Origin: a virus
Lineage: Duplodnaviria > Caudoviricetes
DNA length: 50,649 nt
Reading direction: 5' to 3' (one strand)
IMG/VR virus record: IMGVR_UViG_3300005534_000003
Coordinates: 1-50,649 of that record
Position numbers and translations under genes: made by a program. Below, one piece after another: positions 33,076 through 50,100 of the stretch. Position 1 is the stretch's first letter, and each line of letters opens with the position of its first letter. Below the pieces are notes generated by a model. It saw only the letters and a list, made by a program, of their open reading frames with translations. It had not been told where the DNA came from and did no database searches.

Positions 33076-33615
33076 TCATTCTATAATTTCTATAAATTGG
33101 GGGCCGTTCTTTAAAGCGGATTGAATCAATGGAAACAAACGATCAAATGCCTCCCTCGATTCCTCTAATGTGTCTCCTGTGCGTTGATCCCCGAGAATTA
33201 TACAACCCTTACTATCTTGGAAAACATTCCCGCAATGTATTTCTATCTCACTTCTGTTCGGAACATCTTTTAGAATTGGTACAAGATGTCCTGCATGAGG
33301 TGAGTCATAGAGGTCTAGGCCATATTGTCCCGCTGGAATTGATAAAGCCCGATTCTCCAGCGTAAAACAAAAGCGTTCTCCCCTAAAGTCCATATCTCCA
33401 ACCAGACTGCTTGTCGTCGACATCGATAGGTTTCTTCGTACTCTTAGGAGCGGGCTTGTCGCACTCGTGGATGTCAAGATTGAAGCTGCAACGTTCTCGG
33501 GGGCACTTGGTGATGCGCCACCACTGTTTTGTTTTTGCATCGTGCTCGAAGATTGCAATAGGTTCAATAGAGAGGTTGCAACCTGGACAAATAATTGCCA
33601 TACACTTCCCTCCAT
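33076..33615 (-). CDS. DUF5675-family putative endolysin
   Basis: FCFTLE...IPAGQY...DVPNRSEIEIHCGN..DSKGCIILG...SREAF. Confidence 0.8.
   Translation of the reverse strand: MEGSVWQLFVQVATSLLNLLQSSSTMQKQNSGGASPSAPENVAASILTSTSATSPLLRVRRNLSMSTTSSLVGDMDFRGERFCFTLENRALSIPAGQYGLDLYDSPHAGHLVPILKDVPNRSEIEIHCGNVFQDSKGCIILGDQRTGDTLEESREAFDRLFPLIQSALKNGPQFIEIIE
33383..33601 (-). CDS. Zinc-ribbon ORF nested in the endolysin gene (alternate frame)
   Basis: Own GGAGGG RBS; CPGC-x24-CPRERC. Confidence 0.45.
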   Translation of the reverse strand: MAIICPGCNLSIEPIAIFEHDAKTKQWWRITKCPRERCSFNLDIHECDKPAPKSTKKPIDVDDKQSGWRYGL

Positions 33616-33617
33616 AT

Positions 33618-33794
33618 CTATTTCCCCCAGAGATGAACGTGCTTAATAGCTTCCACGAGAACTGGAGAGCCTAGCACGAACCAAATCATTTTTTTCAGCC
33701 ACTTCAGATCGCCGCGAATTTCGCCAGACTCGATTAAGTGATTTTCCACAGTTTTTTCAAGGCTTGTCAAACGCTTATCGAGGCTTGGCATCAT
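33618..33794 (-). CDS. XhlA-like holin candidate (58 aa)
   Basis: Hand translation MMPSLDKRLTSLEK...DLKWLKKMIWFVLGSPVLVEAI; AAGGAG RBS; directly before the endolysin. Confidence 0.65.
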   Translation of the reverse strand: MMPSLDKRLTSLEKTVENHLIESGEIRGDLKWLKKMIWFVLGSPVLVEAIKHVHLWGK

Positions 33795-35658
33795 AACTCT
33801 CCTTCTTTGTTTTTATAAATGCCTGGAGTTGATCTTTCATGTCGGTGTTAAATTGTCCATCACCTTTCTTGGCCACCACTCCACCTTCTGCCATTTTGGC
33901 AGGATTATTGGCCGGTTGATTTGGTAGACTGTTGGATGATTCTTTAGACACTGGATTATCGGACATTTTCTGTTTTGCCGCTGCGTAGGATGGATCGCGC
34001 TGACTCAACACGAAGTCTGTGATAGCTTGAGACTTTTGCGCTTCACCCGCATTTGTGGCAGTGGCCGCATTCTTTTGAAATGTTGCTTTCCAAGGAGCCA
34101 TCGCCGGATGGTTTACATCTAAACTCGTAGGACTAGTAGGAGTAGATGTAGAAGGTTCAGAATGAACTGGTTTCGTTTCACCCATATTCTGGTGGATAGG
34201 GCCGGTGGCAAGTTGTGCTCCAGCGATAGGTAATGCCCCGGCAATTCCTGGAACTGCTCCCGCCGCTTTTGTTGCAAGGCTTGACATTGCACGAGGATTT
34301 TGTAATGTTGCAGTGGCCGCTCCGATAGCCCAAAGAGGATGGCCCGCGCCTAGAAGACCCATAGAGGTGAGGGCATTGATAGCGGGCTTATCTTGGCCTG
34401 GCATTTGTCCGACAAGCTTTCCGATCATACCAAAGCCTTTGGCCGGAACATTCCCTGCACGTTCGCCGCCTAAAACATCTTTCAATCCATTAACAACGGG
34501 ATAGAGTTTAGAATAATCTGACATAGCGGTTTTTAAATCTTCGGGAAGATTAGGATTTGCCGCCGCTTTGTCAATGATGGTCTTTTGTCCTGCGCTAAGT
34601 TGGCTGTAGACATCCGCCGCTGCTGGATTTTTTACCGCACCATTTTCGAAGGCTGAATTGCCGTAAGATTTCTTTAATTGCTGTAATTGATCGAAGCTCA
34701 CGAAACTCCCTGGTTGCTCCGTGAGGATATCAGGAGCGATCCGTTCAGCCCCATTCCGATTGGCCATAGCTAAGATGTCCGCCGCACCGCGCTTATAAAA
34801 TAGAGCCGCCTTTCGTTCATCTGGATTGGCTAATTGGGAAGCTGCTTGATATTTCGCTTCGAGAGCATCTAGGAGTGGCTTTGTATCGGCGGTCAAGCCC
34901 AAATCTTTAGATTGTGCACCGATTTGCCCGATTTTCTGCCCGGCTTCTTCGTGCAAATTTTTAGCCGCATCAAACATCTCTTGTGTAGAAGCCCCTTCTC
35001 TCACAATACCTTTATCCATGAGCATTTTGCCGGTGTCAATGACCTCTTGTTGGCTCATATTGCCAAGCTCTTTGGACCCCATACCAACGCCCTGGGCCGC
35101 TTTTCGTGCGGCATATTCTTCGATGCCTGGGACGGCCTCTGTGGCCAATCCGGCAAGCTTTTGACCGACGGCTCCCCCTGCCGCGCCTAATCCTGCCCCT
35201 AAAGCCACGTCCCCTACCGCTTTGGCTCCTGAACCCCCGCCAGCAAGCGTATCTATAGCGTTTCCTGCCCCAAATCCGCCCCCAATTACCGCTCCTTGGC
35301 CTGCGGCACCCGCGAGGCTCTCTGGGACGCTAGAACCCCCCGTTACGAGCGCGGGAGCCACTATCCCAGCGGCTTGCCCTGCCACTCTGGCCACGGGATG
35401 ATTGGCCTTGTCGGCGGCCACTTCTTTTTCCAATTCTTGGCGTTCCTGCAAATAGGGTTTGTTTTCCGCCGCTCCGGCAATGGCAGAATAAGCTTGTTCC
35501 CCCAGGGGTATCATACTGGCCGCGCCGCGCCCAGCCGCGCCTAGGGCCGTCGTCTCGTCTACCGGTTCGTCCTGGCCCACGGCGGGGATGCCGCCGATGG
35601 CCGAGAAGTCTATCTTGCCCGTGTGGGCCGGTGTTCCGCCAATTTGTGAAAAGTCCAT
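33775..35658 (-). CDS. Internal virion / ejection protein
   Basis: Gly/Ala-rich hydrophobic helices, DFSxIGG N-terminal repeats and a C-terminal MAEGG; positional support. Confidence 0.7.
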   Translation of the reverse strand: MDFSQIGGTPAHTGKIDFSAIGGIPAVGQDEPVDETTALGAAGRGAASMIPLGEQAYSAIAGAAENKPYLQERQELEKEVAADKANHPVARVAGQAAGIVAPALVTGGSSVPESLAGAAGQGAVIGGGFGAGNAIDTLAGGGSGAKAVGDVALGAGLGAAGGAVGQKLAGLATEAVPGIEEYAARKAAQGVGMGSKELGNMSQQEVIDTGKMLMDKGIVREGASTQEMFDAAKNLHEEAGQKIGQIGAQSKDLGLTADTKPLLDALEAKYQAASQLANPDERKAALFYKRGAADILAMANRNGAERIAPDILTEQPGSFVSFDQLQQLKKSYGNSAFENGAVKNPAAADVYSQLSAGQKTIIDKAAANPNLPEDLKTAMSDYSKLYPVVNGLKDVLGGERAGNVPAKGFGMIGKLVGQMPGQDKPAINALTSMGLLGAGHPLWAIGAATATLQNPRAMSSLATKAAGAVPGIAGALPIAGAQLATGPIHQNMGETKPVHSEPSTSTPTSPTSLDVNHPAMAPWKATFQKNAATATNAGEAQKSQAITDFVLSQRDPSYAAAKQKMSDNPVSKESSNSLPNQPANNPAKMAEGGVVAKKGDGQFNTDMKDQLQAFIKTKKESYDAKPR

Positions 35659-35671
35659 TTTTAACCCCTAT

Positions 35672-37918
35672 TTACGGTTGAACCTGGAGATTCGGGTCCA
35701 TTTGTTTGGCTTTTGGCAAGTTCTGCGCGGGAATCCACTGTGCCGGTCCGCCGTCCGAGGGCTTCACGAGGACGTTCCCCTTCGCCCTGTTGAAATACTG
35801 GTCCGCCAGCTTCGCGCCGCTCGCCTGCAGCTGGGCTGAGCTTGGCTTTATGCCAAGGACCGAGGCGTTCTTCACCGCATTGTCCACGTCCGTGCCTGCC
35901 TGCGCGTGAGCCTTCATGTACAAGTCCGCGTCCTTCTCCTGCTTGGCCACTTGAGCCGACATGAGCTGAAAATACGTATTTAAGTCCTTCTTCATGGTGC
36001 CCTTCGGGGCTCCAATGAGGCTGTTCAAGTGTTCATCCACGCCATATGCGTCAGCAGCAGCGGCCTGCTTCAAGGCGTTGTCGCCCATCTGCGTCTGCAA
36101 CTGTAGCTTCTCGATCCTGTCCTGCCGAGCTTTGTCGAAGTTGGCCAGGGCCTCGTCGCGCTGGGTCTTCTCCATGCTGAATATGTTCTGGAGCGAGTGC
36201 TGCTCTCTGCCGCCCTTCGCCGCGAGTGCGTCGCCGAGGCCGGAGACGGCCTGGGCTATGATGCTGCCGATGCCATGCTGCTGCTCCTGCAGTTTGTTTG
36301 CGAGGGCCTGTCGGTCTTCCGCGTTCACGCCTTCCGTTAACTTCGACGTGTCCTGGTTGAATATGGTCTTGAGATTCGGCATGTCGCTGCTCGCTGTGCT
36401 ACTGGTCCCTCCAATGGCTGTCGAGGGAACCATCGGCGGCATCGTAGGAGTTGGGGCCGTCGGCATCGCAGCCGGAGAAATCGGCGGGGTAGCTGGACCG
36501 CCTGCTATCGGGGGTGTGGGAACCGGCAAGCTCGCGCCGGTGAGCTTATTAACTGCAGACACAGCCGGTGGGATCAGTGGTGCAGCCGCGCTTCCCGCCG
36601 CTTGGGCCGGAACCGCCGCCGCGCCTGCCGCGCTGGCCATAGGGGATGTCACCTGAGTGAGTGCCGCCTTGATCTGGTCCCAGTATGTCGGGTCGCTCGG
36701 GCTCGGGGCAGAGGGTTGCAGGCCGCTCGGCGTCGCGTCGCTGACCGAAACTCCGCCATCCGCGTACTTTTTTATGCCCATAGCCTTGTAGATTTCTTTG
36801 AGTTTGGCTTCGTGCGATAGATCGGTGAGGCTTGGCTTTTCCGGCTCCTTGTTCGCCGGTGGAATCGCGCCACCGTCGGCATGGTGCCACTTTTTCGCGT
36901 TGATGGCGAACTGCGCCCGCTTGCGGAGCGTCTCGTTGTCCGAGTTGGCTGCGTGTTCAAGCTTCTTTTCAGGAATATTTTTGTCCTCGGATACACCAAG
37001 TTCCTTATGCAAGGCTCCTTTCTTTAATCCTTCTAGGAAATGTGGCGTCTTGCCACCCTTTGCCATGTGCGCTGGATTTTCTTTCTCGCCGGTTTCTGTC
37101 GTGGTTGTGGGACCCGCCGGTGCACCCTCCATATGAGTGTCCTTCTTGACCTGCTCGGGGCTCTCGTTCTCTAAAAACGTGACGTGCGGGTAGCCACCCT
37201 CGGCGTAGCCGCCGTCGGACATGGCTCGGGCCATCATGCCGTTCGGCACGGGATGTGCCAAAGAGGATCGCATGACGGGTCCACCTTTTTCATAGTTATT
37301 CGGAGCATATTTCGAGACAGTATTGATATCCGTTGCATTGACTTTGGGCAAATCTCCTAGCTTGTCCGTTTCTTCCATGATTGGAGCGGATTGAGTAGAA
37401 GCTCCCGTCTCGGCGGGCAATAGACCCTTCTCACGCAAAATATGTTCAGGCACCGATGCAGGATCAGAACCATAGCCTAGCTTGGCTATCTCGTCAGGAT
37501 CGCCGCGCACGCCCCATAGTTTTACTTCATTGCCCGTGGGGCTTTTTTGAATTCCTTTGATAAAGGCTTCAACTTTCGGGGCACTCTCAGTCGCCGCTTC
37601 CTCCACTTTCGGGGCAATTGTGATTGCACCCTTCTCGCCCAATCCTTCAATAGCCGGAAGAGCTTCGTTAATAGCTCCTCCTTTCATGGCCGGTCCTAGC
37701 AAAAACGGCAATAGAAAATCCGTCGCGGTCGCATCCTGCACGCCAGGCTCGTTAGGGTCCGGCTTGACCTCTCCGCCTTCGGCCATGTTCTTTCCGCCGT
37801 TTGGATGCGCGTTGTGCAACGCTGCGGCGACGGCCTGGTCATGTGGATGGCCTGACGCAACCATCTCATGTATATTTTTTGCTATTACTTCTTTGGACTT
37901 TCCTTCGTGTAATGGCAT
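35672..37918 (-). CDS. Internal virion / cargo protein, polyprotein-like
   Basis: Seven xAxGG-type motifs separate short modules; helical C-terminal domain. Confidence 0.7.
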   Translation of the reverse strand: MPLHEGKSKEVIAKNIHEMVASGHPHDQAVAAALHNAHPNGGKNMAEGGEVKPDPNEPGVQDATATDFLLPFLLGPAMKGGAINEALPAIEGLGEKGAITIAPKVEEAATESAPKVEAFIKGIQKSPTGNEVKLWGVRGDPDEIAKLGYGSDPASVPEHILREKGLLPAETGASTQSAPIMEETDKLGDLPKVNATDINTVSKYAPNNYEKGGPVMRSSLAHPVPNGMMARAMSDGGYAEGGYPHVTFLENESPEQVKKDTHMEGAPAGPTTTTETGEKENPAHMAKGGKTPHFLEGLKKGALHKELGVSEDKNIPEKKLEHAANSDNETLRKRAQFAINAKKWHHADGGAIPPANKEPEKPSLTDLSHEAKLKEIYKAMGIKKYADGGVSVSDATPSGLQPSAPSPSDPTYWDQIKAALTQVTSPMASAAGAAAVPAQAAGSAAAPLIPPAVSAVNKLTGASLPVPTPPIAGGPATPPISPAAMPTAPTPTMPPMVPSTAIGGTSSTASSDMPNLKTIFNQDTSKLTEGVNAEDRQALANKLQEQQHGIGSIIAQAVSGLGDALAAKGGREQHSLQNIFSMEKTQRDEALANFDKARQDRIEKLQLQTQMGDNALKQAAAADAYGVDEHLNSLIGAPKGTMKKDLNTYFQLMSAQVAKQEKDADLYMKAHAQAGTDVDNAVKNASVLGIKPSSAQLQASGAKLADQYFNRAKGNVLVKPSDGGPAQWIPAQNLPKAKQMDPNLQVQP

Positions 37919-37919
37919 C

Positions 37920-39239
37920 TTATTTACCTCTCCGGTAGCCTTTCGTGAACGATGTCAAATCGACTTTCTTGCCCGTGCCTGGGACTGGGGCATTTTTGGC
38001 GAACTCTTCCATGTGTGGGCCATCTTTTGGCACCGAGCGCGGGATAACAAGCTCCCCTGGGCTCAAAAGCGCGGGCACTGTGTCGTTCTCCTCACTGTCG
38101 CCTTCTACCTTGGCATGTCCGCTGATATGGCCGCCAAGTTTCATACAAATCGCATGATCGTGCGCCACACCACCGTCTGCATAGCAGGTGTAGCCACCCT
38201 TAGAATAACCGATTACTCCACCGTTGGCTAATGGTTTATACTGGTTCGGGTTTGTCGGTGTTGAGATGGGTTGTCCCTGATTTTGTCCGATCACTTTAGA
38301 TGCCTGCCCGCCGATTGCTGCACCGACCGGACCGCCAATGGCAGCTCCGCCGATTGTCCCTGCCGCTCCGAGTAACGATCCTGCAAATCCCAAGTTCGCG
38401 TTCGTGGCGTTCTGGGCTGCGCCCGCCTGTTGTTGGCTCACTCCGGCTATTCCAGCCGCCTTGTTTAACTCATTGTTGAATTGCTGCTGAGGAAGAGCCG
38501 CATTGTAGTAAACTTTATTTTGTCCAGCGGCAGTATTGGCTGCGTTGACGCCTTGCGCTGTGTTCGTGTTGAATTCACCAGTTTGAATTTGATTTGCCAC
38601 ATTGCCAGTATTTGCGGTATTTATGTAGCCCTGATTTACTGCATTAATTTGATTCTGAGCCGCAGCCTTGGCCGCAGCCTGCGCATAGTCTGAGGCGTTC
38701 ACGCCCCCGCCGATGTTCGCCATAGCGTTTAGAGCGGCTTCCCGATTGGCCTCCGCCATAGCGGCGGTCTGCAGTCCCTGCTCCGCTCCCGTGTTTGATG
38801 CGCCCTGCGCCGCGATGGCTCGTTGCGTGAGAGCGAAGTCCCCTCCTCCTTGGCCTTCGGCTTGGGCTGCGTTCATAATCGCGCCTTGCGCTCCTCGTGA
38901 CTGTGTATTGGCAGCATCAATGGCCTGCTGAAGAGCTAACTTGGCGTTTGCGTCAAGACCGCCCGCATTTGCGATGTCCGTATACTGACCTAAAGCTGCC
39001 ATTTGGGCGGCTCTTGTTGCGGGATCGAGGGAAATATTGTTGTAGGCCGATGGGGCTTGCTCTGCCACCTGGATGGGGGCCGGAGTGACAGTTCCCTGCA
39101 CCGACTCCATAGGGAGGTTCCCCACCGTCTCGGAGGCGATGGTAGGCACATTGGCGTTTTGATAGGCCGCTAGGGCCTGTTGCAGATATTTTTGCGACTC
39201 CGTGTCGGAAGAGCCGAATAGATTGTCGAATAAGCCCAT
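37920..39239 (-). CDS. Internal virion / pilot-like protein with C-terminal DTVPALLSPGELVIP domain
   Basis: MGLFDNLFG start, Ala/Gln/Asn helices, glycine-zipper segment and clustered xxGG motifs. Confidence 0.7.
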   Translation of the reverse strand: MGLFDNLFGSSDTESQKYLQQALAAYQNANVPTIASETVGNLPMESVQGTVTPAPIQVAEQAPSAYNNISLDPATRAAQMAALGQYTDIANAGGLDANAKLALQQAIDAANTQSRGAQGAIMNAAQAEGQGGGDFALTQRAIAAQGASNTGAEQGLQTAAMAEANREAALNAMANIGGGVNASDYAQAAAKAAAQNQINAVNQGYINTANTGNVANQIQTGEFNTNTAQGVNAANTAAGQNKVYYNAALPQQQFNNELNKAAGIAGVSQQQAGAAQNATNANLGFAGSLLGAAGTIGGAAIGGPVGAAIGGQASKVIGQNQGQPISTPTNPNQYKPLANGGVIGYSKGGYTCYADGGVAHDHAICMKLGGHISGHAKVEGDSEENDTVPALLSPGELVIPRSVPKDGPHMEEFAKNAPVPGTGKKVDLTSFTKGYRRGK

Positions 39240-39240
39240 G

Positions 39241-39459
39241 TTAGCGTACTCCTGTTGGAAGCCTGTTTATCAGTCCTTGGAACGGCGGCTGGGACTGTTG
39301 CTTTGTCTTCATATATTGCTGCATTGCTGCTAGAAATTGAGCATCGTTCACGTCAGGAAATTCTTTTGCAAACTTTTTGATGGCCTCCATGAGTTGTGGC
39401 TCGGACGCTTTTGGCATCGTGTTCTTTAGAACTTTCAGGACATTTTGCACATTAATCAT
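39241..39459 (-). CDS. Small hypothetical protein
   Basis: Exactly fills the gap between two virion genes. Confidence 0.6.
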   Translation of the reverse strand: MINVQNVLKVLKNTMPKASEPQLMEAIKKFAKEFPDVNDAQFLAAMQQYMKTKQQSQPPFQGLINRLPTGVR

Positions 39460-41367
39460 CTAAAAGAGACCTCCAAAAAAGTCACCGATTTTTCCCAGAA
39501 CATTTTGGACGGACGATCCGAGACTCTTGATAACACTTGGGTCAAACATCAAAGACCCAAGGCCCAAAGTTCCTATGGAGGCGGCTATGTTCCCGATATT
39601 GTTCTGCGTAAGATTTTGGTAGATTCTGTTCCCCGCCTCAGCGGCCACGGTGGGAATTGTTGCCACCCCACTCGCTAGACCGGCATTTCTCAATGTTCGC
39701 AGAGTGTTATCGTTCGCAGGAGTTGGAGCAGACGGAAGACTTATGCTGCCTACGGGTGCCAAGTCGGCCTGCAATTTTGTGAGGAGATTGTTGTAGTTTG
39801 TGGCTGTCTGCGGAACCCATCCTATGCCCTGTGCTGCTCCAGGTTTTGCAGCATCTCCCGCATTTGCCTTTTGAACGGCGGCATTTGCCTGTTGTTGTAA
39901 GGCCTGCCATGCTGGATTGGGTACTGATTGTTGGATCGTTGGTGGTTGGCCGTGGCCAGAAGAGGGATTTCTTACTGTTTGTGTGATCGTAGCGGGCACC
40001 TTGTTGCCGTTCGCGTCATAGAGGACTGGATTGTTTTGGGGAGTCACGGGAGTGTAGATGTTTGGTGTGCTTTCTCCCGTTATCTTCATAAAGTCTTGTC
40101 GTCCGGCGTCGGCATTCGCCTGTGCTGCCTGAAAGGGAGCCATCGCCTTCGTAATCTGGCCGCCAATGCCGGAAAGCTCACTCGTCATCGCTGCTGGCAC
40201 TGCACCATTGCTCAAAGCAGCCAATATATTTTGATAGTCAACCGGAAGAGCCGTACCAGCTTGCGAAGCGGTGCTCGCGTTGATATTCGTGCTTACGGGA
40301 TTCGGGCCATTCAGCGTCTGCAAGGCAGCTGCAGTGGTGTAGTCCTGGGGCGTTGCCACCTGGGCCAATGTTGGAGCCCCGCCATATGGCTGCAAATTCA
40401 TCCATGCACTAAAATCGGCGGTGGTGGGATTCGTTATCTGCGGATTTGCCCGCAGGAAGTCCTGAACGTCCGCATTGTAGGACGTGGCCGCGCCCGTTAA
40501 GGCAGACACGTCCTTGTTGTATCCGGCGATGTTCCCTTGGGCGGTGGTCAGCTCATTGCCCACCTGGGCGTTCAAAGCGGCTGTTTGGTCGGCTATGGCT
40601 TTGTTCGCCGCCGCGTTGGCCGATGATATGTCGCCCTTCGTCTGTGCGATGTTCTTGTTCACGTCCGCCGCGCCGCCGCTGAGGCTCGTCAGTAGATTCG
40701 AGAATGGGTCATAGGCAGTTTCTACAGAATTCAAGGCTGTCGGACTTTGGGACAAAATCGCGCTGTCAAGAGCAGTCACGCCAGGACTTTTCACCTGTTC
40801 CGCGTTTTGCAGAAGCCCCTCGCGTCCCGCCTCGGTTTTTGTAGCATTTTGTCCCTGGGCGATGGCTTGGTTTATAGCCGTCTGCTGATTTTGATACTGA
40901 TTCGTGCTCTCGGCAGATGCGGGACCGTTGTATGTCGCGTTCAACAGCTTTTGAAAAGAAGGGATATTACTCGGATTGCTAGCGAAGGATACTGGGTTGG
41001 CCGATTCCGCCGCTATCGTCTCACTGGCATTCGGGACGGCATTGGCCGACACCTGTTTTCCGATGTCGCCTAAAGTGGAAGTATTTTGTGTGGCCAAGTT
41101 TTGATACTGCTTGTTGATGCCGCCAGTAATTTGTCCGGCTAGGGGTTCTGCTTGTCCCTGGTTGGCCGTGAGATATTGGTTTAAAGTAGCAAATTGACCG
41201 CCAGCCGACGTTGGCGTAGTACCGCTTGGTTGTGGACCGCCACCAGCCGGAGCCACAGACGTGGAAGGAGCAAGGTGAACCGCACCTCCTCCGCCGATTG
41301 GTGAGACTGGACCGGAAGGAGCGGTCATTTGGTCCTTTTCTTGATCCATGTTTTCAACGAATGGCAT
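39460..41367 (-). CDS. Internal virion / ejection protein
   Basis: Ala/Gln/Asn/Thr-rich helical protein with hydrophobic C-terminus; AGGAG RBS. Confidence 0.65.
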   Translation of the reverse strand: MPFVENMDQEKDQMTAPSGPVSPIGGGGAVHLAPSTSVAPAGGGPQPSGTTPTSAGGQFATLNQYLTANQGQAEPLAGQITGGINKQYQNLATQNTSTLGDIGKQVSANAVPNASETIAAESANPVSFASNPSNIPSFQKLLNATYNGPASAESTNQYQNQQTAINQAIAQGQNATKTEAGREGLLQNAEQVKSPGVTALDSAILSQSPTALNSVETAYDPFSNLLTSLSGGAADVNKNIAQTKGDISSANAAANKAIADQTAALNAQVGNELTTAQGNIAGYNKDVSALTGAATSYNADVQDFLRANPQITNPTTADFSAWMNLQPYGGAPTLAQVATPQDYTTAAALQTLNGPNPVSTNINASTASQAGTALPVDYQNILAALSNGAVPAAMTSELSGIGGQITKAMAPFQAAQANADAGRQDFMKITGESTPNIYTPVTPQNNPVLYDANGNKVPATITQTVRNPSSGHGQPPTIQQSVPNPAWQALQQQANAAVQKANAGDAAKPGAAQGIGWVPQTATNYNNLLTKLQADLAPVGSISLPSAPTPANDNTLRTLRNAGLASGVATIPTVAAEAGNRIYQNLTQNNIGNIAASIGTLGLGSLMFDPSVIKSLGSSVQNVLGKIGDFFGGLF

Positions 41368-41376
41368 TTAATTCTC

Positions 41377-41802
41377 CTAATTGACTATCGGGGCCCAGCG
41401 GATTTCTACTGTTATACTGTACGTCACTCCGTCTGTGAGACCACAAATTCCCAAAATATTGAGTAGTCCATTGGCGAATGACCAACTCACGAAGGGAGCA
41501 GTCGTAAATATTGGACTTGATCCATCTGTCGGAACAATTTTACCAAGGGTCAAGCGACTCGGTTGATACGAAAACAGCGTGAGAAAGCTGAACACGTTGT
41601 TGCTCGGCGTGGACGAGCCCGTCAACGTGAATGTCTTCACCTGACAAATATCGTTTTGCTCCGGCGTGAGCTGATTCTGCAGACCATAGTATATCTGTTG
41701 AAAGTATAGATTAATCGCGTAGAGCAACTTCTGCTTCCAACTTCCTTTTGGAGCATCCTGCAAATCTTCCTCAGTTATGCGCCTGTACGTTGGAAGTATC
41801 AT
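41377..41802 (-). CDS. Tail-associated protein (141 aa)
   Basis: Start reassigned to MILPTYRR, TAATG-coupled to the nozzle stop. Confidence 0.65.
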   Translation of the reverse strand: MILPTYRRITEEDLQDAPKGSWKQKLLYAINLYFQQIYYGLQNQLTPEQNDICQVKTFTLTGSSTPSNNVFSFLTLFSYQPSRLTLGKIVPTDGSSPIFTTAPFVSWSFANGLLNILGICGLTDGVTYSITVEIRWAPIVN

Positions 41803-44633
41803 TATTTGCTCCGAGTCGTAACGTCCGTGTATTGAACCACACAACCACCATACGTGAATCCCACCATCGCCTGATTCAAGCTGAGCGACAAATTGAGCCA
41901 ATGGGCACGTCGAGCGTATATTGGGACGTATGTGCGAACGGATGATACGGCGAATGGGTCCAAGCCGCCCCAAGGAATTTGCCCCCAGGGAAATTGACCC
42001 CATCCCACAGATGTCCCCACCGGCACAAGGGGTATGGTGGTTGCGCTCGCCAAAAAATCACTGGAAAAACTCACGCCCACGGAAGTAAACTGAACATTCT
42101 GGAAGAAAAACTGCACTTCCTTGAAAAACTTTATAAGACTTGGATTCCCAGGCATGTTTGCATATGCGCCTGTTCCGCTTATCGGGCAATACCGCACCGC
42201 CACCGGAATGGGTTGTTCTATAGCAGTAAATGGAGTTCCGGTCAAATCCCAAATAATTGTGTCTGCAACAGTAATCTGCGTGGAATTTAAAATGCCGGTG
42301 ATGACCGATATATTCTTAACCTGCGATATGGAATTCCCCGTTCCTGCTATCAGCTGAACAAGGCTCCATCCTAGTTGCACTTGTGAAGTGTCTGTTAAGG
42401 TCACCGTAGTACCACTAAAACCAGTAATTATCACGGGAAGCTCAACATCCGCGAAGTCTATGCGCGTGAACGTCTTCCGCTCCTGAAACACATACGGATA
42501 AGCGGTGGATGCGGATGTCACATACAATCGCTGCTCTGTCGGGCTCTCAAGAATATCCCATACAGGAATCGGATAGAGATAGGTGGTCCATGACTCAGTG
42601 ATGGTGTCATAGACGTACTGGATCGTGGCCTTCTGGAATTTGTCAGCAGAAGAAATCGTGCTCATCAGGTACTTTCTGTCCGTCTGATACGCCGTTCCGA
42701 ACGTCACCACGGGAAAATTTGGGTATAAAACGGAGCTTATTGGCTGAAGGATGTTCTCGATGGGCCGAGATATGATCCCTGGTCCCGTCTCCGATATGGC
42801 CACGACGCCTTGGTTCGTGTACGCGAACACCTGGTTGTTCATCACGGCGCACGATTCTGGTGCGGTCAATATAGTGCCAGTGTCCAACGTCGTCACCGTG
42901 AATGGAAACGTGGTTCCCGTGAGCTGGAACAATCCATCCTGCTTCAACACGATGACGCTGTTTCTTAGAGGAAGACAACGAAGCCACTCAAAGTTCGGAT
43001 TGCCGACATTTATGGTGTTCGCCAAGGGCACAGCCTCTGGCTGCTGGAACTTAGAACAAAAGCCCATTCCCTTTCCACCACCAGCCAACGATATGGAGCC
43101 TACGGATATGTCCTGCGCCGTACCGGTGGTGAAACCAGTCGTATTCGCCACAACAAGATGAGTAGCATCCATCACGGTGGTCACCGTGGTCGCGAACGTA
43201 CTTTGCGTGATGGTGTCTCCAGCTGTTATTCCAGTGGTAGAAACAACTGTCAAATGGGTCATGTCAACTACCGTGGAAATCGTGAAGTTTAGAATCGGCT
43301 GCAACGCCGGAGTCCAGCACGTTGACCGCGAGGAAAACACGTAGAATGGACCACCGCCTACGCCCTGTTCTTGCAAGAAGAAGTCCCCTGGCAGTGACGT
43401 GGTATTGTTCGGGTCCGTTGCGTCAAAAGCATACACGAGCGTCTGCGACTGCCTATTAAGCACGTGGATCAATGATTGTTTGGTCTGAACAAGGTCGCTT
43501 CCAGGGGTGCCGCCGGAGAAAACCTGAAATTGGCCCAGGCCTATGTTTTCACTCGCGGCTCCCGTGAGGATGAACTGTGTGGCCCCGTTCGCCACGGTGA
43601 AGGTGTCCCCAATTTGGATGCCATTTGGCGGCTCGGATGATAAAAGCGATAGGAGAAACTTCTGCTGCGTTGTACAAGAACCATATATCACATAGCCAAA
43701 GTAAAAACAAAGATCATTGGAAAGCGGAGGAATCGTGTTGGCCTGGGCGATTCCTTGCTGGCCGGAGTTCGTGTAAAGGGCCGCGCCGAGCTGGCTTTGC
43801 GGAACTGTGTCCTTTACCGTGAAAAATCCGTTGGATATGTCCGTCGAAGTGGGATTTCCCTGCAAGACTTCCTGCAACTCGTCCGACGGAGCTGTTGTTC
43901 CAGTTGCTGACATGGGGGAGCGATATATCTTCCATTGCTGGGCTGTTGTCGCGCCATGCGGGATGGTGAACGTGAGCTGCACGTTTCGACTGCCGCCAGA
44001 ATTGTTGGCAATAACGACACGCGTGCTTGGCGCGCCTTCCACTGCGTTATGGTTCGCATCGGTGAATGTCCATGTTATCCGATAGGCCACTTCTGTGTTC
44101 GTGGACATGAATCCCGCGACATCGGTAAGGGCCGCCGATCCATCCAACCCTGGCAATCCACCAGCAGAATAGAGGGGATTTGCCGGAGCATCCGTCTTCA
44201 ATATGCCATTCGCCGATGTTAGATAGAGATTGTTGTTGCTCTGCGTCGAACGATATGTGTCCGTTAATTTATATGCAGGGGAAGGAAATGGGTGGGTCGT
44301 TTGCACCCACGTCCCGAGGCCGTCGCTGTCATAGGCGAAGTAGGCCCTTGCCGCGCTTGCTATTGCTGCCGTGGAATCCCCATACCATATGAGTTTTGTA
44401 CCCTTGTAGAAGAACTCCTGAAAAATCTCCGTGTTCGGGTTTCCCGTGAGCGTCGCAAGATTCGTGCCAAATTGTTTGATGCCTCGGCGCACGCTAAGGA
44501 GGCCATTGTAGTCTACAACAACATTCTGAGCCTGTAGCAAGGAACCCTTCGGCACCTGCGACAGACTATTGGGCATCGTGAATAGGCCCTTACAGTCGAG
44601 TTGTATGTATTGTGGATCTGTCTGTAGAGTCAA
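41802..44633 (-). CDS. Tail nozzle / tubular protein B-like (packaged-DNA stabilisation)
   Basis: 943 aa beta-rich protein, AQNVVVD..G.LSVRRG N-terminal motif; follows the adaptor gene. Confidence 0.65.
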   Translation of the reverse strand: MTLQTDPQYIQLDCKGLFTMPNSLSQVPKGSLLQAQNVVVDYNGLLSVRRGIKQFGTNLATLTGNPNTEIFQEFFYKGTKLIWYGDSTAAIASAARAYFAYDSDGLGTWVQTTHPFPSPAYKLTDTYRSTQSNNNLYLTSANGILKTDAPANPLYSAGGLPGLDGSAALTDVAGFMSTNTEVAYRITWTFTDANHNAVEGAPSTRVVIANNSGGSRNVQLTFTIPHGATTAQQWKIYRSPMSATGTTAPSDELQEVLQGNPTSTDISNGFFTVKDTVPQSQLGAALYTNSGQQGIAQANTIPPLSNDLCFYFGYVIYGSCTTQQKFLLSLLSSEPPNGIQIGDTFTVANGATQFILTGAASENIGLGQFQVFSGGTPGSDLVQTKQSLIHVLNRQSQTLVYAFDATDPNNTTSLPGDFFLQEQGVGGGPFYVFSSRSTCWTPALQPILNFTISTVVDMTHLTVVSTTGITAGDTITQSTFATTVTTVMDATHLVVANTTGFTTGTAQDISVGSISLAGGGKGMGFCSKFQQPEAVPLANTINVGNPNFEWLRCLPLRNSVIVLKQDGLFQLTGTTFPFTVTTLDTGTILTAPESCAVMNNQVFAYTNQGVVAISETGPGIISRPIENILQPISSVLYPNFPVVTFGTAYQTDRKYLMSTISSADKFQKATIQYVYDTITESWTTYLYPIPVWDILESPTEQRLYVTSASTAYPYVFQERKTFTRIDFADVELPVIITGFSGTTVTLTDTSQVQLGWSLVQLIAGTGNSISQVKNISVITGILNSTQITVADTIIWDLTGTPFTAIEQPIPVAVRYCPISGTGAYANMPGNPSLIKFFKEVQFFFQNVQFTSVGVSFSSDFLASATTIPLVPVGTSVGWGQFPWGQIPWGGLDPFAVSSVRTYVPIYARRAHWLNLSLSLNQAMVGFTYGGCVVQYTDVTTRSK

Positions 44634-44642
44634 ATTGAACCT

Positions 44643-45569
44643 CTAGTCCCAGGCGTAAAGAGAATTGGGCGTCGTCAAGCGAATAACATTGCCATCTACG
44701 CGAGGTGTTATAACTGAAATAAAGAACTCTTTCATGTCGGTCGCTTGTGACATAGCCACATTAAATCCTTGAGTGTCTCCGTGAATCTCAAGGCATTTGG
44801 CCGCCGAGAGTTGGAGCAATAGCTGAAAGCCAGGCTTGAATGGAATCTGCGGGATCGGCGATTGCATGGCAAGACAAACCCAGTCACCCACTTGAACCGT
44901 AGGAGGCAACGCAGTGAAAGTTATGTTGCTGCCAGTGATGTTAGTGACAGTCAAGTCATCGCCCTGGCTTACGAACATCTGAGGGCTATTCGACACAATG
45001 TCATAGGTCACGCTAGTCGTGAATGTCAACGGAACATTGCCGACCGTCACCACGTTTCCAGTAATGGCCGTGATCTGCCCGCAATTCGTGGAAAGCACGA
45101 GCGTGCTGGGCATTCTGACATATCGCAAACGGAGAAACTTGTAGGCTTGGCTTGTTCCAGTGAAGCTTCCCAAATAGAGCACGCATTTGTCATTCTGCAG
45201 ATAGAAACCCCATAAGGCGGGATTGATTGCCAAACCCGTGGAGTTGACGTTCGACATGATGTCCTCAGGTCGTAAGCGGGGAATGCGAATCTCATTGTTG
45301 TTCGAGTCCACGAATGAGACGGATCGCAGCTTGTCCGCCGTGGCCCGCACGGGAAGCGGATATACGGTCACGCTTTGATTGTATGGAATGTCGGCTGGGA
45401 CAATGAAGTATTCCTCCGCTTGGTTGTCGATCAACGGAAGAATCTTCGAACTCATCTCAAAGTCCATAATGTTCGTGAGGTCCATGTCCGAGAACAATGC
45501 CTGGACAGATGGCATGAGCGGAAGAAGACGAAGCATGGTTAAAAGAGAATCAACAGTATATGGAGACAT
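44643..45569 (-). CDS. Head-tail adaptor / tail tubular protein A-like
   Basis: Helical N- and C-termini around a beta domain (YPLP...LRLRYVRMP...PQIP); positional support. Confidence 0.6.
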   Translation of the reverse strand: MSPYTVDSLLTMLRLLPLMPSVQALFSDMDLTNIMDFEMSSKILPLIDNQAEEYFIVPADIPYNQSVTVYPLPVRATADKLRSVSFVDSNNNEIRIPRLRPEDIMSNVNSTGLAINPALWGFYLQNDKCVLYLGSFTGTSQAYKFLRLRYVRMPSTLVLSTNCGQITAITGNVVTVGNVPLTFTTSVTYDIVSNSPQMFVSQGDDLTVTNITGSNITFTALPPTVQVGDWVCLAMQSPIPQIPFKPGFQLLLQLSAAKCLEIHGDTQGFNVAMSQATDMKEFFISVITPRVDGNVIRLTTPNSLYAWD

Positions 45570-45578
45570 TCTAGCTCC

Positions 45579-47645
45579 TTAAATCGGATAAGAAAACTGT
45601 ACGGCAACGGTATCACTAGTAGTATATAAATCTGTTCCTGTATTTTTACTTATATTTCCTCCACCAGCTGCAGCTATGCCAACATAAACAACTGTTCGAT
45701 CTGTCCCTGATGAAAATATTTGACCGAAATCAGAACTTGCAAATGAAGCACCAACATTTGCAACTCTTAATGCTTGTCCTAAACGAGGATTTCCAATAAG
45801 AACATTTATTTTTGAACCATTTACAGAGGTGCTATTTGGCAATGAAAATGTAACAGTTGTTGCTGATGGAGTGCCACATTGAAACTGTCCTTGAACAAAA
45901 ATTGTTTTACCAATTTGTTGCCACCAAAATTGTGCATTAGAAACAGTTCCGCATCCAGTAACAGTTGGTGTATATGATGCCCAATCAGTAACCGTCGGTA
46001 TTTGACCAAAAGCGGCAGCATCACTAGAAGCTGTTCCATTTGCTAAACCAGTAATTTTGTTGGTTCCCATCGCAATCGTCGAACCAGACATTGTGATTGC
46101 GCCTGCTCCACCGGTGTACGTATAACTGCCATTTATAGATGCGCCATTCGCATCACTTACGGCATTCGTGCTTGTCGCATAGTAGGCGAGATGTGTCGCT
46201 GTCCCACTATTAACTGTGCCTGTCCCAGCTACATTTTGAAAGGTAGGAAGAGCACCGGCTCCATTCGATGTCAAAACCTGACCAGAAGAACCGACACTAA
46301 CGACATTCTGCAAAGCCCCAGTAGACGTAATTCCGCCACAAATCAATGTGTAGGCAGTGAAAGAGGCGTCACCCGTGCCCCCATTTGCAACAGTAAGAGG
46401 ATTCGTAAGCGTTAAGCTTGCGAAAGTAGGGCTAGAAGTTGTGGCGATGCTCTGCGGCAACGATAAAGTAACTGAACCAGTTGCAGAAGAAGCTATGACT
46501 TGATTGGTGGTGCCTGTGATTGAATTTACAATGGCCTGAAAAGTTGGATCAGTCGTCGCTCCCGTCGAGACAAGAGCGAAATTCGTGGTTCCAGGTCCGG
46601 CAAATGCTATAGGAGATGTCCCTTCGCCTAAGAGAACGGAGTGGGCAGTTAAAGTAGAGTCGCCAGTTCCACCATTAGCAACGGGCAATATGCCAGTAAC
46701 GCCAGTTGTAAGAGGCAAACCTGTGGCGTTTGTTAAGACAACCGCAGATGGCGTTCCAAGATTGGGAGTAACCAAAGTAGGACTAGTGGCCAAGACAACG
46801 CTTCCTGAACCTGTCGAAGAGCTTGATATAGATGATTCCACGATTGCGCCAGCAGATGAGGCCATCAATTTGCCATTGGCCAAAGCCGTGGAGCTATTCG
46901 TTCCTCCATTGGCTATCGGCAGAACACCTGTTACTCCGGTCGTGAGTGGCAAGCCTGTTGCATTCGTTAGTATCGCGCTCGTCGGCGTGCCCAAGGCTGG
47001 CGTCACGAGCGTCGCATTCGTCCATGTTCCCGTTAAAGTGTAGTTTCCCTTGTCCAATAAGAAGTTTGCCGATGCGCCCGCGTCGGGAATAATATACGTT
47101 CGCGACGCAGAAGGAGCAGTTGCTGAGATAGTAGTAGTATTGGTTGTACCGAGGATGAGTTGATTTGTAGTATTGGAGAGAATTTCTGACGCAAATGTAG
47201 GGCTAGAGGATAAAGCGATGCTTTGCGGAAGGGAAAGAGTGACATTTCCAGTCGATGAAGAGGCAATGACTTGATTGGCAGTTCCAATTATGGAAGTCAC
47301 ATCACCTGTGCTCGTGGCGATGATGTCCCCGCGCCACGTCAGATTGCCGCTTCCGTCGGTCGTAAGGGGATAGTTGCTCGCGCTGAAGGCGATTACGTCC
47401 GTGCCGCTTAGGCGTAGTACGCCCGTGGTCGCGATGCCCGCACTTTCTGACTTGTAGTACGGGCTCTTTATGCCAAAGGTGGGTCCGAAGTCAACCTCGG
47501 CGGTCAACGGGAAGCTTCCACCGGCTTTCTGGAGCATACCTGCGGTGACGGCCTGAGCCCACCCAGTCGCATTGACTCCCCAATTTGTGTCAAAGTCAAC
47601 TGGGTATTGAAAGGTTACACCGTTAATTATAAGAGGAACCGCCAT
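45579..47645 (-). CDS. Tail fibre protein
   Basis: Ser/Thr/Gly-rich; repeated ANGGT and LVTPxLGTP units; KITGLANGTASSDAA motif; WASYTPT tip domain. Confidence 0.85.
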   Translation of the reverse strand: MAVPLIINGVTFQYPVDFDTNWGVNATGWAQAVTAGMLQKAGGSFPLTAEVDFGPTFGIKSPYYKSESAGIATTGVLRLSGTDVIAFSASNYPLTTDGSGNLTWRGDIIATSTGDVTSIIGTANQVIASSSTGNVTLSLPQSIALSSSPTFASEILSNTTNQLILGTTNTTTISATAPSASRTYIIPDAGASANFLLDKGNYTLTGTWTNATLVTPALGTPTSAILTNATGLPLTTGVTGVLPIANGGTNSSTALANGKLMASSAGAIVESSISSSSTGSGSVVLATSPTLVTPNLGTPSAVVLTNATGLPLTTGVTGILPVANGGTGDSTLTAHSVLLGEGTSPIAFAGPGTTNFALVSTGATTDPTFQAIVNSITGTTNQVIASSATGSVTLSLPQSIATTSSPTFASLTLTNPLTVANGGTGDASFTAYTLICGGITSTGALQNVVSVGSSGQVLTSNGAGALPTFQNVAGTGTVNSGTATHLAYYATSTNAVSDANGASINGSYTYTGGAGAITMSGSTIAMGTNKITGLANGTASSDAAAFGQIPTVTDWASYTPTVTGCGTVSNAQFWWQQIGKTIFVQGQFQCGTPSATTVTFSLPNSTSVNGSKINVLIGNPRLGQALRVANVGASFASSDFGQIFSSGTDRTVVYVGIAAAGGGNISKNTGTDLYTTSDTVAVQFSYPI

Positions 47646-47732
47646 ATATTTCTCCTGTACTAAATTGCGGGGGTTTTTCGAAGGAAATCACCCCAAACCT
47701 GTAAGAAAAAGGACGAATTTTTTCTTACAAAA

Positions 47733-48167
47733 CTACTTCTTTTTCTTTTTGGCGAACAAGCTCGCGAACATGGAGGTTGGCTCGGAAACCGGCTCAACGT
47801 CTCCTTCAGCTTCGCGTTCTGCTTCGGATTCAGTGGCTTCTTCATGTGCTGATCCTTCTTTGTCAGGATGACCTTCCGCTGATTCGTAGGGAATTGGCCC
47901 TGAATGAATGTTAGGAGTAGGATCAGTGGCGTTAACTTTCTCCACGACTCCACCCTTACTCAACTCATGCGTTACCACATCATGCTCTGGTGTGGGATGA
48001 TCCATGTCGTGATCGGCTACCTCGACGCGCTCGGCTTGGATGCCGTGCATGTCGCCCTCGCCTTCGGGATGTTTGAGTCCGCCTTCTACCTCGCCTACGG
48101 CGTGGGATTTAAGCATTCCCAGTAGTTTCTGAATCATTTTATGTTTTTCGTCGAAATGGTCTGTCAT
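47733..48167 (-). CDS. Acidic His-rich disordered protein
   Basis: AGGAG RBS; Glu/His-rich; LSKGG motif; KKKKK end. Confidence 0.7.
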   Translation of the reverse strand: MTDHFDEKHKMIQKLLGMLKSHAVGEVEGGLKHPEGEGDMHGIQAERVEVADHDMDHPTPEHDVVTHELSKGGVVEKVNATDPTPNIHSGPIPYESAEGHPDKEGSAHEEATESEAEREAEGDVEPVSEPTSMFASLFAKKKKK

Positions 48168-48466: not shown

Positions 48467-48814
48467 CTACCGAAGGTAATCAATCGCTTTTTGGAGGATC
48501 ACTATACTATCTCTTGCTTTTCCAACCATATGATTACAAGAAAGACACAATAAGCCGCGTACTTTACCTGTCAAATGGTTATGATCTACATGAGCAGTAT
48601 AGAGTGTTTCAAAGGGTAATGAACAAATTTTGCATTGCCCATTTTGACTTTTAAACATCTCCGTTTTTTCCTGAAGGGTGATACCGTACTTCGAAAGCAA
48701 TTTTCGATTGACGACCTTATCTTTATGAACTTGCTCATACTTTAGACTTGCAAGCCGATGTTTTTCGGGATGCAATCTATTATATTCGCGATGATAGGCT
48801 CGTCTATCTTTCAT
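48467..48814 (-). CDS. Endonuclease VII-family homing endonuclease
   Basis: KYGIT...QNGQCKIC...HVDHNHLTGKVRGLLCLSCN...AIDYL. Confidence 0.9.
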   Translation of the reverse strand: MKDRRAYHREYNRLHPEKHRLASLKYEQVHKDKVVNRKLLSKYGITLQEKTEMFKSQNGQCKICSLPFETLYTAHVDHNHLTGKVRGLLCLSCNHMVGKARDSIVILQKAIDYLR

Positions 48815-50100
48815 TAGCTTCGCGGAACGATATTGTTAATCAAGCACATATGTGAGGGAGTTTCGGCAAACACTGTATTGTCTGCCCAAATTCTCACTTG
48901 GTACCCAGCGAAGTCTCCGAGAGGAACCTGGAGATAGCTGTCCGTGGAAGTCCCAGGGAGCTGGAACGTCAGCTCGCTTGAACCGATGCGGGTGATGCTA
49001 TCCGTAGGATAGAGCAGAGCCTCGCCGCGCTTCATCAGCGGGTGCGGGACAATGGTCATCGTACCGGAAGGAGAATAGAACTCAAGGGCGTCGGCCCCGT
49101 TGTCCATTTTCTTCCCTTTCACATCGCCGTATCGGCGGGCAGCCGCCTGCTCGGTCAAGAGGTCGCTGAAGGATGTCAAGGGCACCAGCACGGTGCACTC
49201 TTCGCCCATCAGTCCCTTGTCGCCAGGCAGAGTGATAGCCTTTTGCAGCTTGCCGAAGGACAGAGGAGCCGTACCGGCGTCGTACGTATTCCCTTGCCAA
49301 AGCGGCCACGTCACTGAATTGATGCTGAACAGCGTTCCCATGTTGGAGGCAATGGTGATTAAGCCAACGCCTTCGATGGGGGTAGTGAACGTCGATCCGA
49401 ACGCGCCGTTGAAAGCAACGTTCAGCGGTGTGGCGGTCAAGGCAACGAGAGCAGTGCTGCCAGTCGTGGTACCATTGACAGTGATCGTGAAGGACGTGAA
49501 GTTCATACCAACCACTTGGAACACGGAATCCGCGCCAGAAGAAACTAACGCATTCGTGTCAGAGCGGTAGAACTGCACTTGCGCTCCAATCGAGGAAGCC
49601 CAGATGCCAGTCGCCCAAGAATCGGCGGTCAGTTGCACCGTAGACTGCGTGGAGCTAACGGCTGTGACAGAAGACGAAAGACCAATACCACGGGTTCCGT
49701 GGAGATAGGTACATTCGAGGCGGAAGCCCGCCCCTTCGGTCATGTCGTTGAGCGTGATGTCAACGGCCTTTCCGAAGCTGTTCTTTCCAGCCGAACGGCT
49801 GATGGCCGTGTAGCTGATGTTGTCTCGGCGAATGAGGCTGAACGCCGGTACGAGAGCATTTTCCATCTGGAGCCCAATGGCCGCGTTCAACGCGAAGGCT
49901 GAGCCATCGGTGTTGTACGTGTATCCCTGGCCGGACTGGACTTTCACCGGAGCGTTGAACTTGTCTCCGAGTTGCTTCATCCCTTTTTCTACGGTCGTGT
50001 TCTTGAGAATGTACGCGTAGTTGGGAACTAAGTCTTTGATCTTGTCCTGGTAGGCTTGTTTAAAGTCACCATTCAATGCACTTAAATCTACGTCACTCAT
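48814..50100 (-). CDS. Major capsid protein
   Basis: 428 aa after the scaffold; outline consistent with an HK97-type fold; strongly biased codon usage. Confidence 0.8.
   Translation of the reverse strand: MSDVDLSALNGDFKQAYQDKIKDLVPNYAYILKNTTVEKGMKQLGDKFNAPVKVQSGQGYTYNTDGSAFALNAAIGLQMENALVPAFSLIRRDNISYTAISRSAGKNSFGKAVDITLNDMTEGAGFRLECTYLHGTRGIGLSSSVTAVSSTQSTVQLTADSWATGIWASSIGAQVQFYRSDTNALVSSGADSVFQVVGMNFTSFTITVNGTTTGSTALVALTATPLNVAFNGAFGSTFTTPIEGVGLITIASNMGTLFSINSVTWPLWQGNTYDAGTAPLSFGKLQKAITLPGDKGLMGEECTVLVPLTSFSDLLTEQAAARRYGDVKGKKMDNGADALEFYSPSGTMTIVPHPLMKRGEALLYPTDSITRIGSSELTFQLPGTSTDSYLQVPLGDFAGYQVRIWADNTVFAETPSHMCLINNIVPRS

Follow-up and report, generated by a model that had tools for sequence, protein, structure and literature searches.

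What is a short peptide ending in Gly-Gly doing thirteen times over in four proteins of a single phage? The question is raised by IMG/VR virus record IMGVR_UViG_3300005534_000003 (Duplodnaviria; Caudoviricetes), a virus record that is complete at 50,649 bases and is referred to here, over its whole length, as the window. On its minus strand, proteins of 439, 748, 627 and 144 amino acids (aa), named p439, p748, p627 and p144, carry a pentapeptide whose aligned copies point to the consensus K-x-[M/Y/F]-A-x-G-G-x-[V/I/P]. An earlier note on this DNA had described it as a punctuation code of virion cargo proteins, serving either proteolytic cleavage at the di-glycine or loading into the capsid. 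We found punctuation and a precedent for proteolysis to hold, but not the Gly-Gly register of the cut, the leader-like or ubiquitin-like features, or the specificity for capsid cargo. It is in our judgement an evenly balanced call that the pentapeptide serves, by its Gly-Gly, as a junction or hinge joining the modules of phage proteins that exit through the tail, with a few copies possibly acting as processing sites, and we give the same even weight to its being the boundary element of a widespread module, lacking a Pfam model, in tape measure proteins and in internal or ejection proteins. The four proteins and their motif copies are located as follows:

37920-39239, minus strand: p439, a mini tape-measure-like ejection protein; an open reading frame (ORF) with 185 homologues, the C-terminal profile of which reaches tape measure proteins
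38231 down to 38130, minus strand: LANGG, YSKGG, YADGG and MKLGG of p439 (residues 337-370), located in the translation
35672-37918, minus strand: p748, a modular internal or ejection protein with 124 homologues of its N-terminal half (metagenomic)
37786 down to 36752, minus strand: the seven motif copies of p748 (residues 45-389), located in the translation
33775-35658, minus strand: p627, a glycine-rich, partly hydrophobic internal protein with orthologues in 6/6 related loci and one motif copy near the C-terminus
33880-33894, minus strand: MAEGG of p627, in an indel-prone linker
47733-48167, minus strand: p144, an acidic, His-rich protein with one motif copy, encoded by an ORF downstream of the capsid gene; no family found (Pfam, PHROG)
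47949-47963, minus strand: LSKGG of p144, at an aligned site that is motif-like in 4/4 sequences

All 13 pentapeptides were found where the earlier note had placed them, apart from its range for p439, which was one base off at each end; the seven copies in p748 run in the order MAEGG, YEKGG, MSDGG, YAEGG, MAKGG, HADGG and YADGG. The enrichment set comprised 69 ORFs (15,319 aa), and all 13 matches to the pattern used by the earlier reader, [LMYH][AESK][DEKNL]GG, which is a post hoc description, fell within the 1,958 aa of the four proteins, none within the remaining 13,361 aa. When each protein was shuffled internally, the mean count was 0.29 and the maximum 4, and a count of 13 was reached in 0 of 2,000 shuffles. 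As this pattern had been fitted to the data, a second one derived from homologues, [MYFH][AS]xGG, was also used; the four proteins contain 9 matches to it where 0.45 would be expected, and the remaining ORFs contain 3. The motif is thus real in the sense that it exceeds compositional expectation, and its reported absence from capsid and portal was confirmed, with no copy in either. The remark that most copies continue with x-[V/I] was generous, V or I standing two residues after GG in 7 of the 13 copies; the figure for the p748 family is 298 of 537 motif instances. Synonymous sites vary among the codons of the 13 copies, which points to selection at the protein level, and a DNA-level repeat or recombination hotspot was rejected on this ground.

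The enrichment check that the earlier note had proposed for the proteome and its relatives came out in favor of the motif among relatives as well, where it is conserved in orthologues. Across related IMG/VR loci, orthologues keep the motif position in five loci for p439, in five for p748 and in two for p144, and the motif is in place in the p627 orthologues of 4 of 6 loci. The aligned site in p144 reads LSKGG, YSKGG, MAEGG or MHTGG in 4/4 alignable sequences, while the MAEGG linker of p627 is present in 5/7 sequences and deleted in loci L003 and L004. The motif is thus conserved, yet it also comes and goes in the manner of a small cassette.

The most complete setting of the motif is found in p439, which consists of a Q/N/A-rich helical N-terminal part, a hydrophobic glycine-rich segment directly upstream of the motif cluster, the cluster itself, a core and a basic tail. 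Two parts of it recur throughout the argument:

38307-38393, minus strand: residues 283-311 of p439, a hydrophobic glycine-rich (glycine-zipper-like) segment with Kyte-Doolittle windows >1.2 at 283-292
38031-38102, minus strand: residues 380-403 of p439, the module core (NDTVPALLSPGELVIP and flanks), near-invariant in 120 homologues and common to tape measure proteins

Hardly any variation is seen among the 120 homologues over the last ~95 residues of p439, which include the stretch NDTVPALLSPGELVIP, and the core D-x-V-P-A-x-L-x-x-G-E-x-V is present at residues 386-399. LANGG is an insertion seen in 1/120 homologues, namely in this phage alone. YADGG and MKLGG are interleaved with C352, H360, H362 and C365, which are invariant in 119-120 of 120 homologues. 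Residues 352-365 make up a C-x7-H-x-H-x2-C frame, which occurs in related proteins with HDHE and suggests a small metal site. About 50 proteins of 100-480 aa from uncultured phages are built on the plan of p439.

When the C-terminal part of p439 was compared with cultured phages by tblastn, the matches were weak (E 0.04-7), and 17 of the 19 records placed them inside annotated tape measure genes. The tape measures of Corynebacterium phage Stiles and Gordonia phage Lilbeanie carry motif clusters beside a core D-x-I-P-A-x-L-S-x-G-E-x-V-V, and the latter scored 30.7 bits in a profile search. Profile A3, made from the p439 C-terminus and five orthologues and searched against 1.84 billion representative proteins, matched 3,437 proteins under a threshold of E<=1e-3, of which 255 also passed E<=1e-10, the best reaching down to E 1e-25. 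Many of the matches are 2,000-7,900 residues long and contain 4-9 matched stretches. Among them are tape-measure-like proteins of 3,000-7,900 residues with 4-9 module copies (P0247-P0391), longer by far than any ruler known to us. The 438 domain instances in 149 A3 matches gave the core D-T-V-P-A-M-L-(T/S)-P-G-E-(F/I)-V, with D, P, A, L, P, G, E and V kept. Literature string and keyword searches returned no account of the motif, and the string searches none of the core.

Motif and core were found to be spaced in a regular way. In the 92 A3 matches of at least 800 aa, [MYFH][AS]xGG occurs 608 times against 43 +/- 6.6 in shuffled sequences, a 14-fold enrichment; upstream copies (5-24 aa before a core) number 178, downstream copies (30-54 aa past its start) 259, and 171 are placed elsewhere. 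This fixed spacing indicates that the motif is a flanking element of a repeated tape-measure module. MKLGG of p439 stands 20 aa upstream of the core and so inside the upstream range of the 92 proteins, and a downstream copy is lacking because the protein ends there. Nine A3 matches were checked individually: six contain Pfam PhageMin_Tail or TMP_3, eight match PHROG tape-measure families, and the ninth, a p439-like protein of 318 aa, has no Pfam or PHROG match. The module is included in the profiles phrog_25241, phrog_17300 and phrog_35029, and no Pfam model matching it was found. Tape measure proteins (PhageMin_Tail, PF10145; TMP_3, PF20155) thus contain the C-terminal module of p439 one to nine times each, and the motif is not private to the cargo of this phage, since it is enriched in tape-measure-like proteins, which are sited in tails.

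By the features compared, p439 has a tape-measure-type C-terminal module: core, upstream motif offset, profile similarity and hydrophobic segment were all found. It differs from the tape measure proteins, as do p748 and p627, in having no tape-measure family match of its own, and none of the three appears to be a tape measure proper, i.e. a length ruler; Pfam and PHROG scans detected no tail tube, sheath, chaperone or tape-measure family among the window ORFs, and the gene order resembles that for internal proteins of T7-like phages. Searches for more distant relatives of p439 gave little. A PDB profile search with the whole-p439 alignment returned one chance-level match (an enoyl reductase, E 0.95), and the C-terminal profile no match at E<=10; the ESM Atlas returned unnamed viral clusters only, the nearest named entry being a crassvirus cargo protein at chance level (0.81); and tblastn with whole p439 and with a typical 318-aa relative (P0345) gave no cultured-phage match at 1e-3.

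The architecture of p748 is a different one. In its N-terminal half the motif links small modules into a string, and its C-terminal half (~520-748) forms a conserved helical domain. The motif is present in 3-10 copies in every one of the 60 best p748 homologues, and among the 120 homologues listed 540 of 1,164 GG dipeptides fall in the motif; the family logo from 537 instances reads K-[KGN]-[MY]-A-[ED]-G-G-x-[VIP]. The core is absent from p748, p627 and p144, where the boundary element is present alone. Two modules of p748 could be delimited:

37805-37918, minus strand: residues 1-38 of p748, module A, matching phrog_2423 (E 2.8e-10)
36881-37039, minus strand: residues 294-346 of p748, module B, basic and flanked by MAKGG and HADGG

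The match of module A is the only one returned by Pfam and PHROG scans of p439, p748, p627 and p144. Module A is homologous to the N-termini of two prohead protease-scaffold fusions, gp26 of Burkholderia phage BcepB1A and gp14 of Acinetobacter phage AB2, from both of which the motif is absent, and it is also found in free-standing proteins 49-63 aa in length. Targeting to the head interior or DNA binding may be its function. In a set of 40 short proteins that begin with module A, the motif follows directly behind the module in 21 of the 27 with at least 86 aa and in none of the 13 with at most 82 aa. Module B is very common elsewhere as a free-standing basic protein of ~60 aa, and one such form (P0484) reaches the cut-off of Pfam PF25632, fusellovirus VP2 (28.1 bits vs 27). 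Recombined forms were also found: a 676-aa protein (P0100), its joints marked by motif copies, combines a p439-like N-terminal part, module B of p748 and a p439-type core, and a 194-aa protein in MW202675, adjoining an 'internal virion protein D', joins module A to two core units. The word punctuation is therefore apt, the motif standing at seams of small modules that occur free-standing elsewhere, and to judge from these sequences it marks seams between modules that evolution shuffles.

The tape measure proteins of phages lambda and T5 bear on the question of processing. In gpH of phage lambda, a hydrophobic glycine-rich stretch (~691-725) is followed by FATGG (733-737), a GEFVF core and YATGG (778-782). 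Residues 732-784 share 45% identity over 53 aa with a tape-measure-like module (blastp, E 1.5e-5), and residues 690-853 align with the first module of giant tape-measure-like matches (phmmer, 4.8e-10); the pairwise database was a pre-selected protein set of 372,117 letters, so both E-values are to be read as tests of a targeted hypothesis and not as the outcome of a blind search. The 2025 Ur-lambda paper, in its passages on gpH, describes a cut in the glycine-rich C-terminal region, gives site and catalysis as unknown, and leaves residues ~690-817 unresolved by cryo-EM (PMC12617516). The FATGG-YATGG unit falls inside this unresolved, processed region. Like gpH (691-784), p439 carries a full unit behind a hydrophobic glycine-rich segment, but gpH is the 853-aa ruler of a long tail, whereas p439 has 439 aa and the window no recognized tail tube gene, and lambda has no counterpart of the multi-copy N-terminal half of p748. 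As a side observation, lambda gpK combines NlpC/P60 with a sub-threshold Prok-JAB match, which is a lead for lambda only.

The second case is pb2 of phage T5, for which the processing passages of PMC10038345 report a cut after R1127 that releases the 92-residue pb2C, and muralytic activity for an H..E motif after the cut site. The 1,219 residues of pb2 include five GG dipeptides, of which a single one belongs to an A-x-G-G: it closes RAEGG (1127-1131), a pentapeptide that opens with R1127 and lies downstream of a hydrophobic stretch (~1040-1075). One experimentally mapped tape-measure cut, as given there, thus falls inside the motif and before its Ala. This gives the proposed link to cleavage a precedent and corrects its position, since the cut precedes Ala and does not follow Gly-Gly. 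The sequence context in p439, with the motif behind a hydrophobic stretch, is like that of the T5 site and would be consistent with processing of the pb2 type, before A-x-G-G. Differences were also evident: the motif in pb2 is followed by the metallopeptidase-type H..E and not by the DTVPAML core, its position 0 is Arg, and neither profile nor pairwise comparison gave significant similarity between pb2 and the p439-type module.

Taken together, these observations are in our view best accommodated by the motif being a boundary element and hinge. The module would be carried by the tape measures of siphoviruses and myoviruses and, in this podovirus-like phage, by internal or ejection proteins. 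Its full unit would comprise a motif, 8-20 residues, the core D-T-V-P-A-M-L-S/T-P-G-E-hydrophobic-V, ~25 residues and a second motif, so that p439 would represent one full unit behind a hydrophobic glycine-rich segment, while p748, p627 and p144 would use the boundary element alone, at joints of small modules that are free-standing elsewhere. Gly-Gly would form an exposed tight turn or hinge delimiting independently folding modules of a chain that would have to pass the tail channel in unfolded form. Post-assembly cleavage of the kind seen in T5 pb2 may occur at one or a few copies, likeliest those just behind a hydrophobic segment, and would then fall before Ala. That the motif exists, is conserved and has the distribution and spacing described, and that it coincides with the T5 cut, is what the data show directly; the hinge role, and likewise the cleavage of any copy in this phage, we infer from sequence. 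The argument for flexibility comes from AlphaFold2 (AF2) models of p439, in which the motif stretches have a predicted local distance difference test (pLDDT) score below 50, both for the whole protein (helices at 73-285, mean pLDDT 54) and for the C-terminal 110 aa modeled with a deeper alignment of 49 rows (mean pLDDT 64).

Several points weigh against this picture. The same AF2 models are poor by their means, which makes the hinge a reading of the sequence. Lambda gpH, like T5 pb2, is missed by both profiles, so that its link rests on the pairwise matches in the small pre-selected database. The T5 coincidence is one site, with no significant similarity of pb2 to the module and with Arg rather than a hydrophobic residue at P1. 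Furthermore, the nine matches checked for tape-measure identity were hand-picked from 149; p748, p627 and p144 lack the core, and their motif copies could be convergent; and His and Cys are clustered around many copies, which a plain hinge does not explain.

The strongest alternative, which we would hold only tentatively, is that the motif is proteolytic punctuation in general, most copies being cut and the N-terminal half of p748 being a cargo polyprotein that is cut either inside the virion or once ejected. A host enzyme, the chain itself or a phage S1 peptidase could then act as the protease; for the last of these, one candidate is encoded in the window:

30677-31408, plus strand: S1 peptidase, trypsin-fold, Trypsin_2 (E 2e-19), in which the His, Asp and Ser motifs are present and the N-terminus is a hydrophobic anchor

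This chymotrypsin-fold enzyme is kept in 6/6 related loci. Chymotrypsin-like P1 preferences fit the M, Y, F, L or H found at motif position 0, and the predicted lack of structure in the motif stretches (AF2), the existence of the inter-motif modules as free-standing proteins of 49-65 aa and the presence of the motif only where something follows module A would likewise suit cleavage. T5 pb2, cut at RAEGG with separation of a functional C-terminal piece in the account cited (PMC10038345), is a precedent. Against this stands the fact that two p439 copies bracket the invariant Cys and His residues within a segment of 70-90% conservation, which cutting there would destroy. Copies may also lie as close as 5 aa (MSDGG and YAEGG), the p627 copy is missing in 2/7 sequences, and the sources on T5 and lambda, in the passages cited, each report a single cut, in lambda despite two copies. 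The S1 peptidase is membrane-anchored and lacking both in MW202675, which bears the module, and in the L007 record (completeness estimated at 53%), so it is no general partner of the motif; occurring in close relatives only, it was not supported as a shared processing enzyme. Its gene lies at the end of the replication block, near lysis-like genes.

An extended form of this idea, to which we give slightly less credence still, would make hydrophobic-A-x-G-G a general processing mark of proteins that phages send out through the tail. It would also be the cut site of lambda gpH, between F733 and A734 if T5 is followed or else after G737, and the N-terminal half of p748 would be a cargo polyprotein releasing several small basic modules into the host.

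Particular Gly-Gly systems, two of them named in the earlier note, fared less well. The motif resembles adenovirus, ubiquitin-like and leader sites in that a hydrophobic residue precedes Gly-Gly by a few places and that a role as processing mark has been proposed; it is unlike them in that, relative to a cut after GG, the hydrophobic residue falls at P5 and Ala at P4. Double-glycine leaders are single N-terminal leaders of 15-30 aa that end in GG and are served by a C39 peptidase or ABC exporter, whereas the present motifs are internal or C-terminal and multiple, with no C39 or ABC domain in the 70 ORFs scanned. Ubiquitin-like processing involves a beta-grasp domain ending in GG and a JAB, ULP or deubiquitinase peptidase; no such Pfam match was found in the window, and the flanks of the motif are predicted to be unstructured. 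Both comparisons therefore fail. Sites of the adenovirus and African swine fever virus (ASFV) type have the form (M/L/I)-x-G-G and are cut after GG by an encoded cysteine protease of clan CE. This type does not fit the motif either, the register being shifted by one with Ala at P4 and no clan CE protease being found in the window.

It is less probable, and in our estimate unlikely, that the motif and its neighboring His and Cys residues form zinc or nickel knuckles that staple modules together, an arrangement likened to the metallopeptidase-type motif after the T5 cut site. The four invariant Cys and His residues of p439 fit such knuckles, as do the related proteins with C-Y-A-x-G-G-E-V-H-D-H-E-x-C, the His at +3 after GG in 124 of 537 instances, with His before the motif in 72, and the beginning of pb2C, where the motif precedes the H..E reported as muralytic in the processing passages of PMC10038345. 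Most tape-measure copies (F/Y-A-S/T-G-G-V-V), on the other hand, have no nearby His or Cys, the p627 and p144 copies have none inside the motif, and AF2 predicted no metal-site fold.

The earlier note had also offered a capsid-loading signal, and a tag recognized by portal, scaffold or chaperone to bring proteins into the particle now seems very unlikely. The confinement of the motif to four virion-module proteins of the proteome and the Lys-Lys often preceding it would be expected of such a tag. The motif is most abundant, however, in tape measure proteins, which occupy the tail lumen and are not capsid cargo, and this argues against capsid loading; its copies number 3-10 and come and go; and module A, common to prohead protease-scaffold fusions without the motif, is the better candidate for head targeting. 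The internal core proteins of T7 lack enrichment, with 2 loose matches in the 2,399 aa of gp13-gp16 and no core, and a universal role of the motif among ejection proteins was rejected on this basis. Capsid targeting of the T4 type relies on a short N-terminal peptide of head-internal proteins that is removed by the prohead protease. This type was likewise rejected, the motif not being N-terminal and abounding in tail proteins, and Pfam and PHROG scans of the window ORFs having identified no prohead protease. Chance, i.e. a by-product of glycine-rich composition, has next to no credit: the four proteins are indeed rich in GG (37 in 1,958 aa vs 87 in the remaining 13,361 aa), but the explanation is refuted by the shuffle test and by the enrichment at fixed spacing in the tape-measure-like proteins, and the positions are conserved across orthologues.

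The gene layout of the window bears on where p439, p748 and p627 act. The structural genes recognized by Pfam and PHROG scans are:

8816-10288, minus strand: terminase
6569-8665, minus strand: portal
48814-50100, minus strand: major head protein, weak match

Downstream of the capsid gene, the minus strand encodes p144, a fibre-like protein of 688 aa, proteins of 308 and 943 aa, p635, p439, p748 and p627; the replication block, with primase-helicase, DNA polymerase A and other genes, lies on the plus strand. From this we infer a gene order resembling that of T7-like phages, with tail-body genes followed by internal core proteins. Just as gp14, gp15 and gp16 in T7, p439, p748 and p627 come after two putative tail-body genes, in the position where T7-like phages keep their internal core genes. 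The internal core proteins of T7 leave through the tail to bridge the envelope, and p439, p748 and p627 are presumed, by analogy, to act in the same way.

Further features were noted around these genes. The record has an exact direct terminal repeat of 111 bases (1-111 and 50539-50649), and a scaffold-like coiled-coil ORF (3-935, minus strand) runs across the record ends toward the capsid gene. ORFs with an Endonuclease VII domain occur at 48467-48814, wedged between the capsid gene and p144, and at 11994-12545 (both minus strand), and an HNH_3 ORF at 23469-23828 (plus strand); the three look like homing endonuclease insertions. Directly after p627, and kept in 6/6 loci, a DUF5675 protein is encoded (33076-33615, minus strand, E 6e-19), whose His...Gly-Cys-Ile pattern is presumably that of L,D-transpeptidase-like folds and which is a candidate wall-active enzyme. 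The fibre-like p688 (45579-47645, minus strand) has three internal repeats ending in [IV]ANGGT[NG]; these were caught by the loosest pattern, stand in another context and were excluded from the motif counts. In the early region, a collagen triple-helix repeat (E 1e-11) was recognized in an ORF of 158 aa (15146-15622, plus strand).

Few parts of the virion are as poorly understood as tape measure and ejection proteins. As the proposed boundary element, the short and strongly conserved motif would delimit a module in thousands of them; it coincides with the mapped T5 cut and flanks the lambda gpH unit. Taken together, these properties give a concrete prediction on how the tape measures of lambda and T5 may be processed, and an annotation handle for ejection proteins in uncultured podovirus-like phages, p439, p748 and p627 being otherwise matchless.

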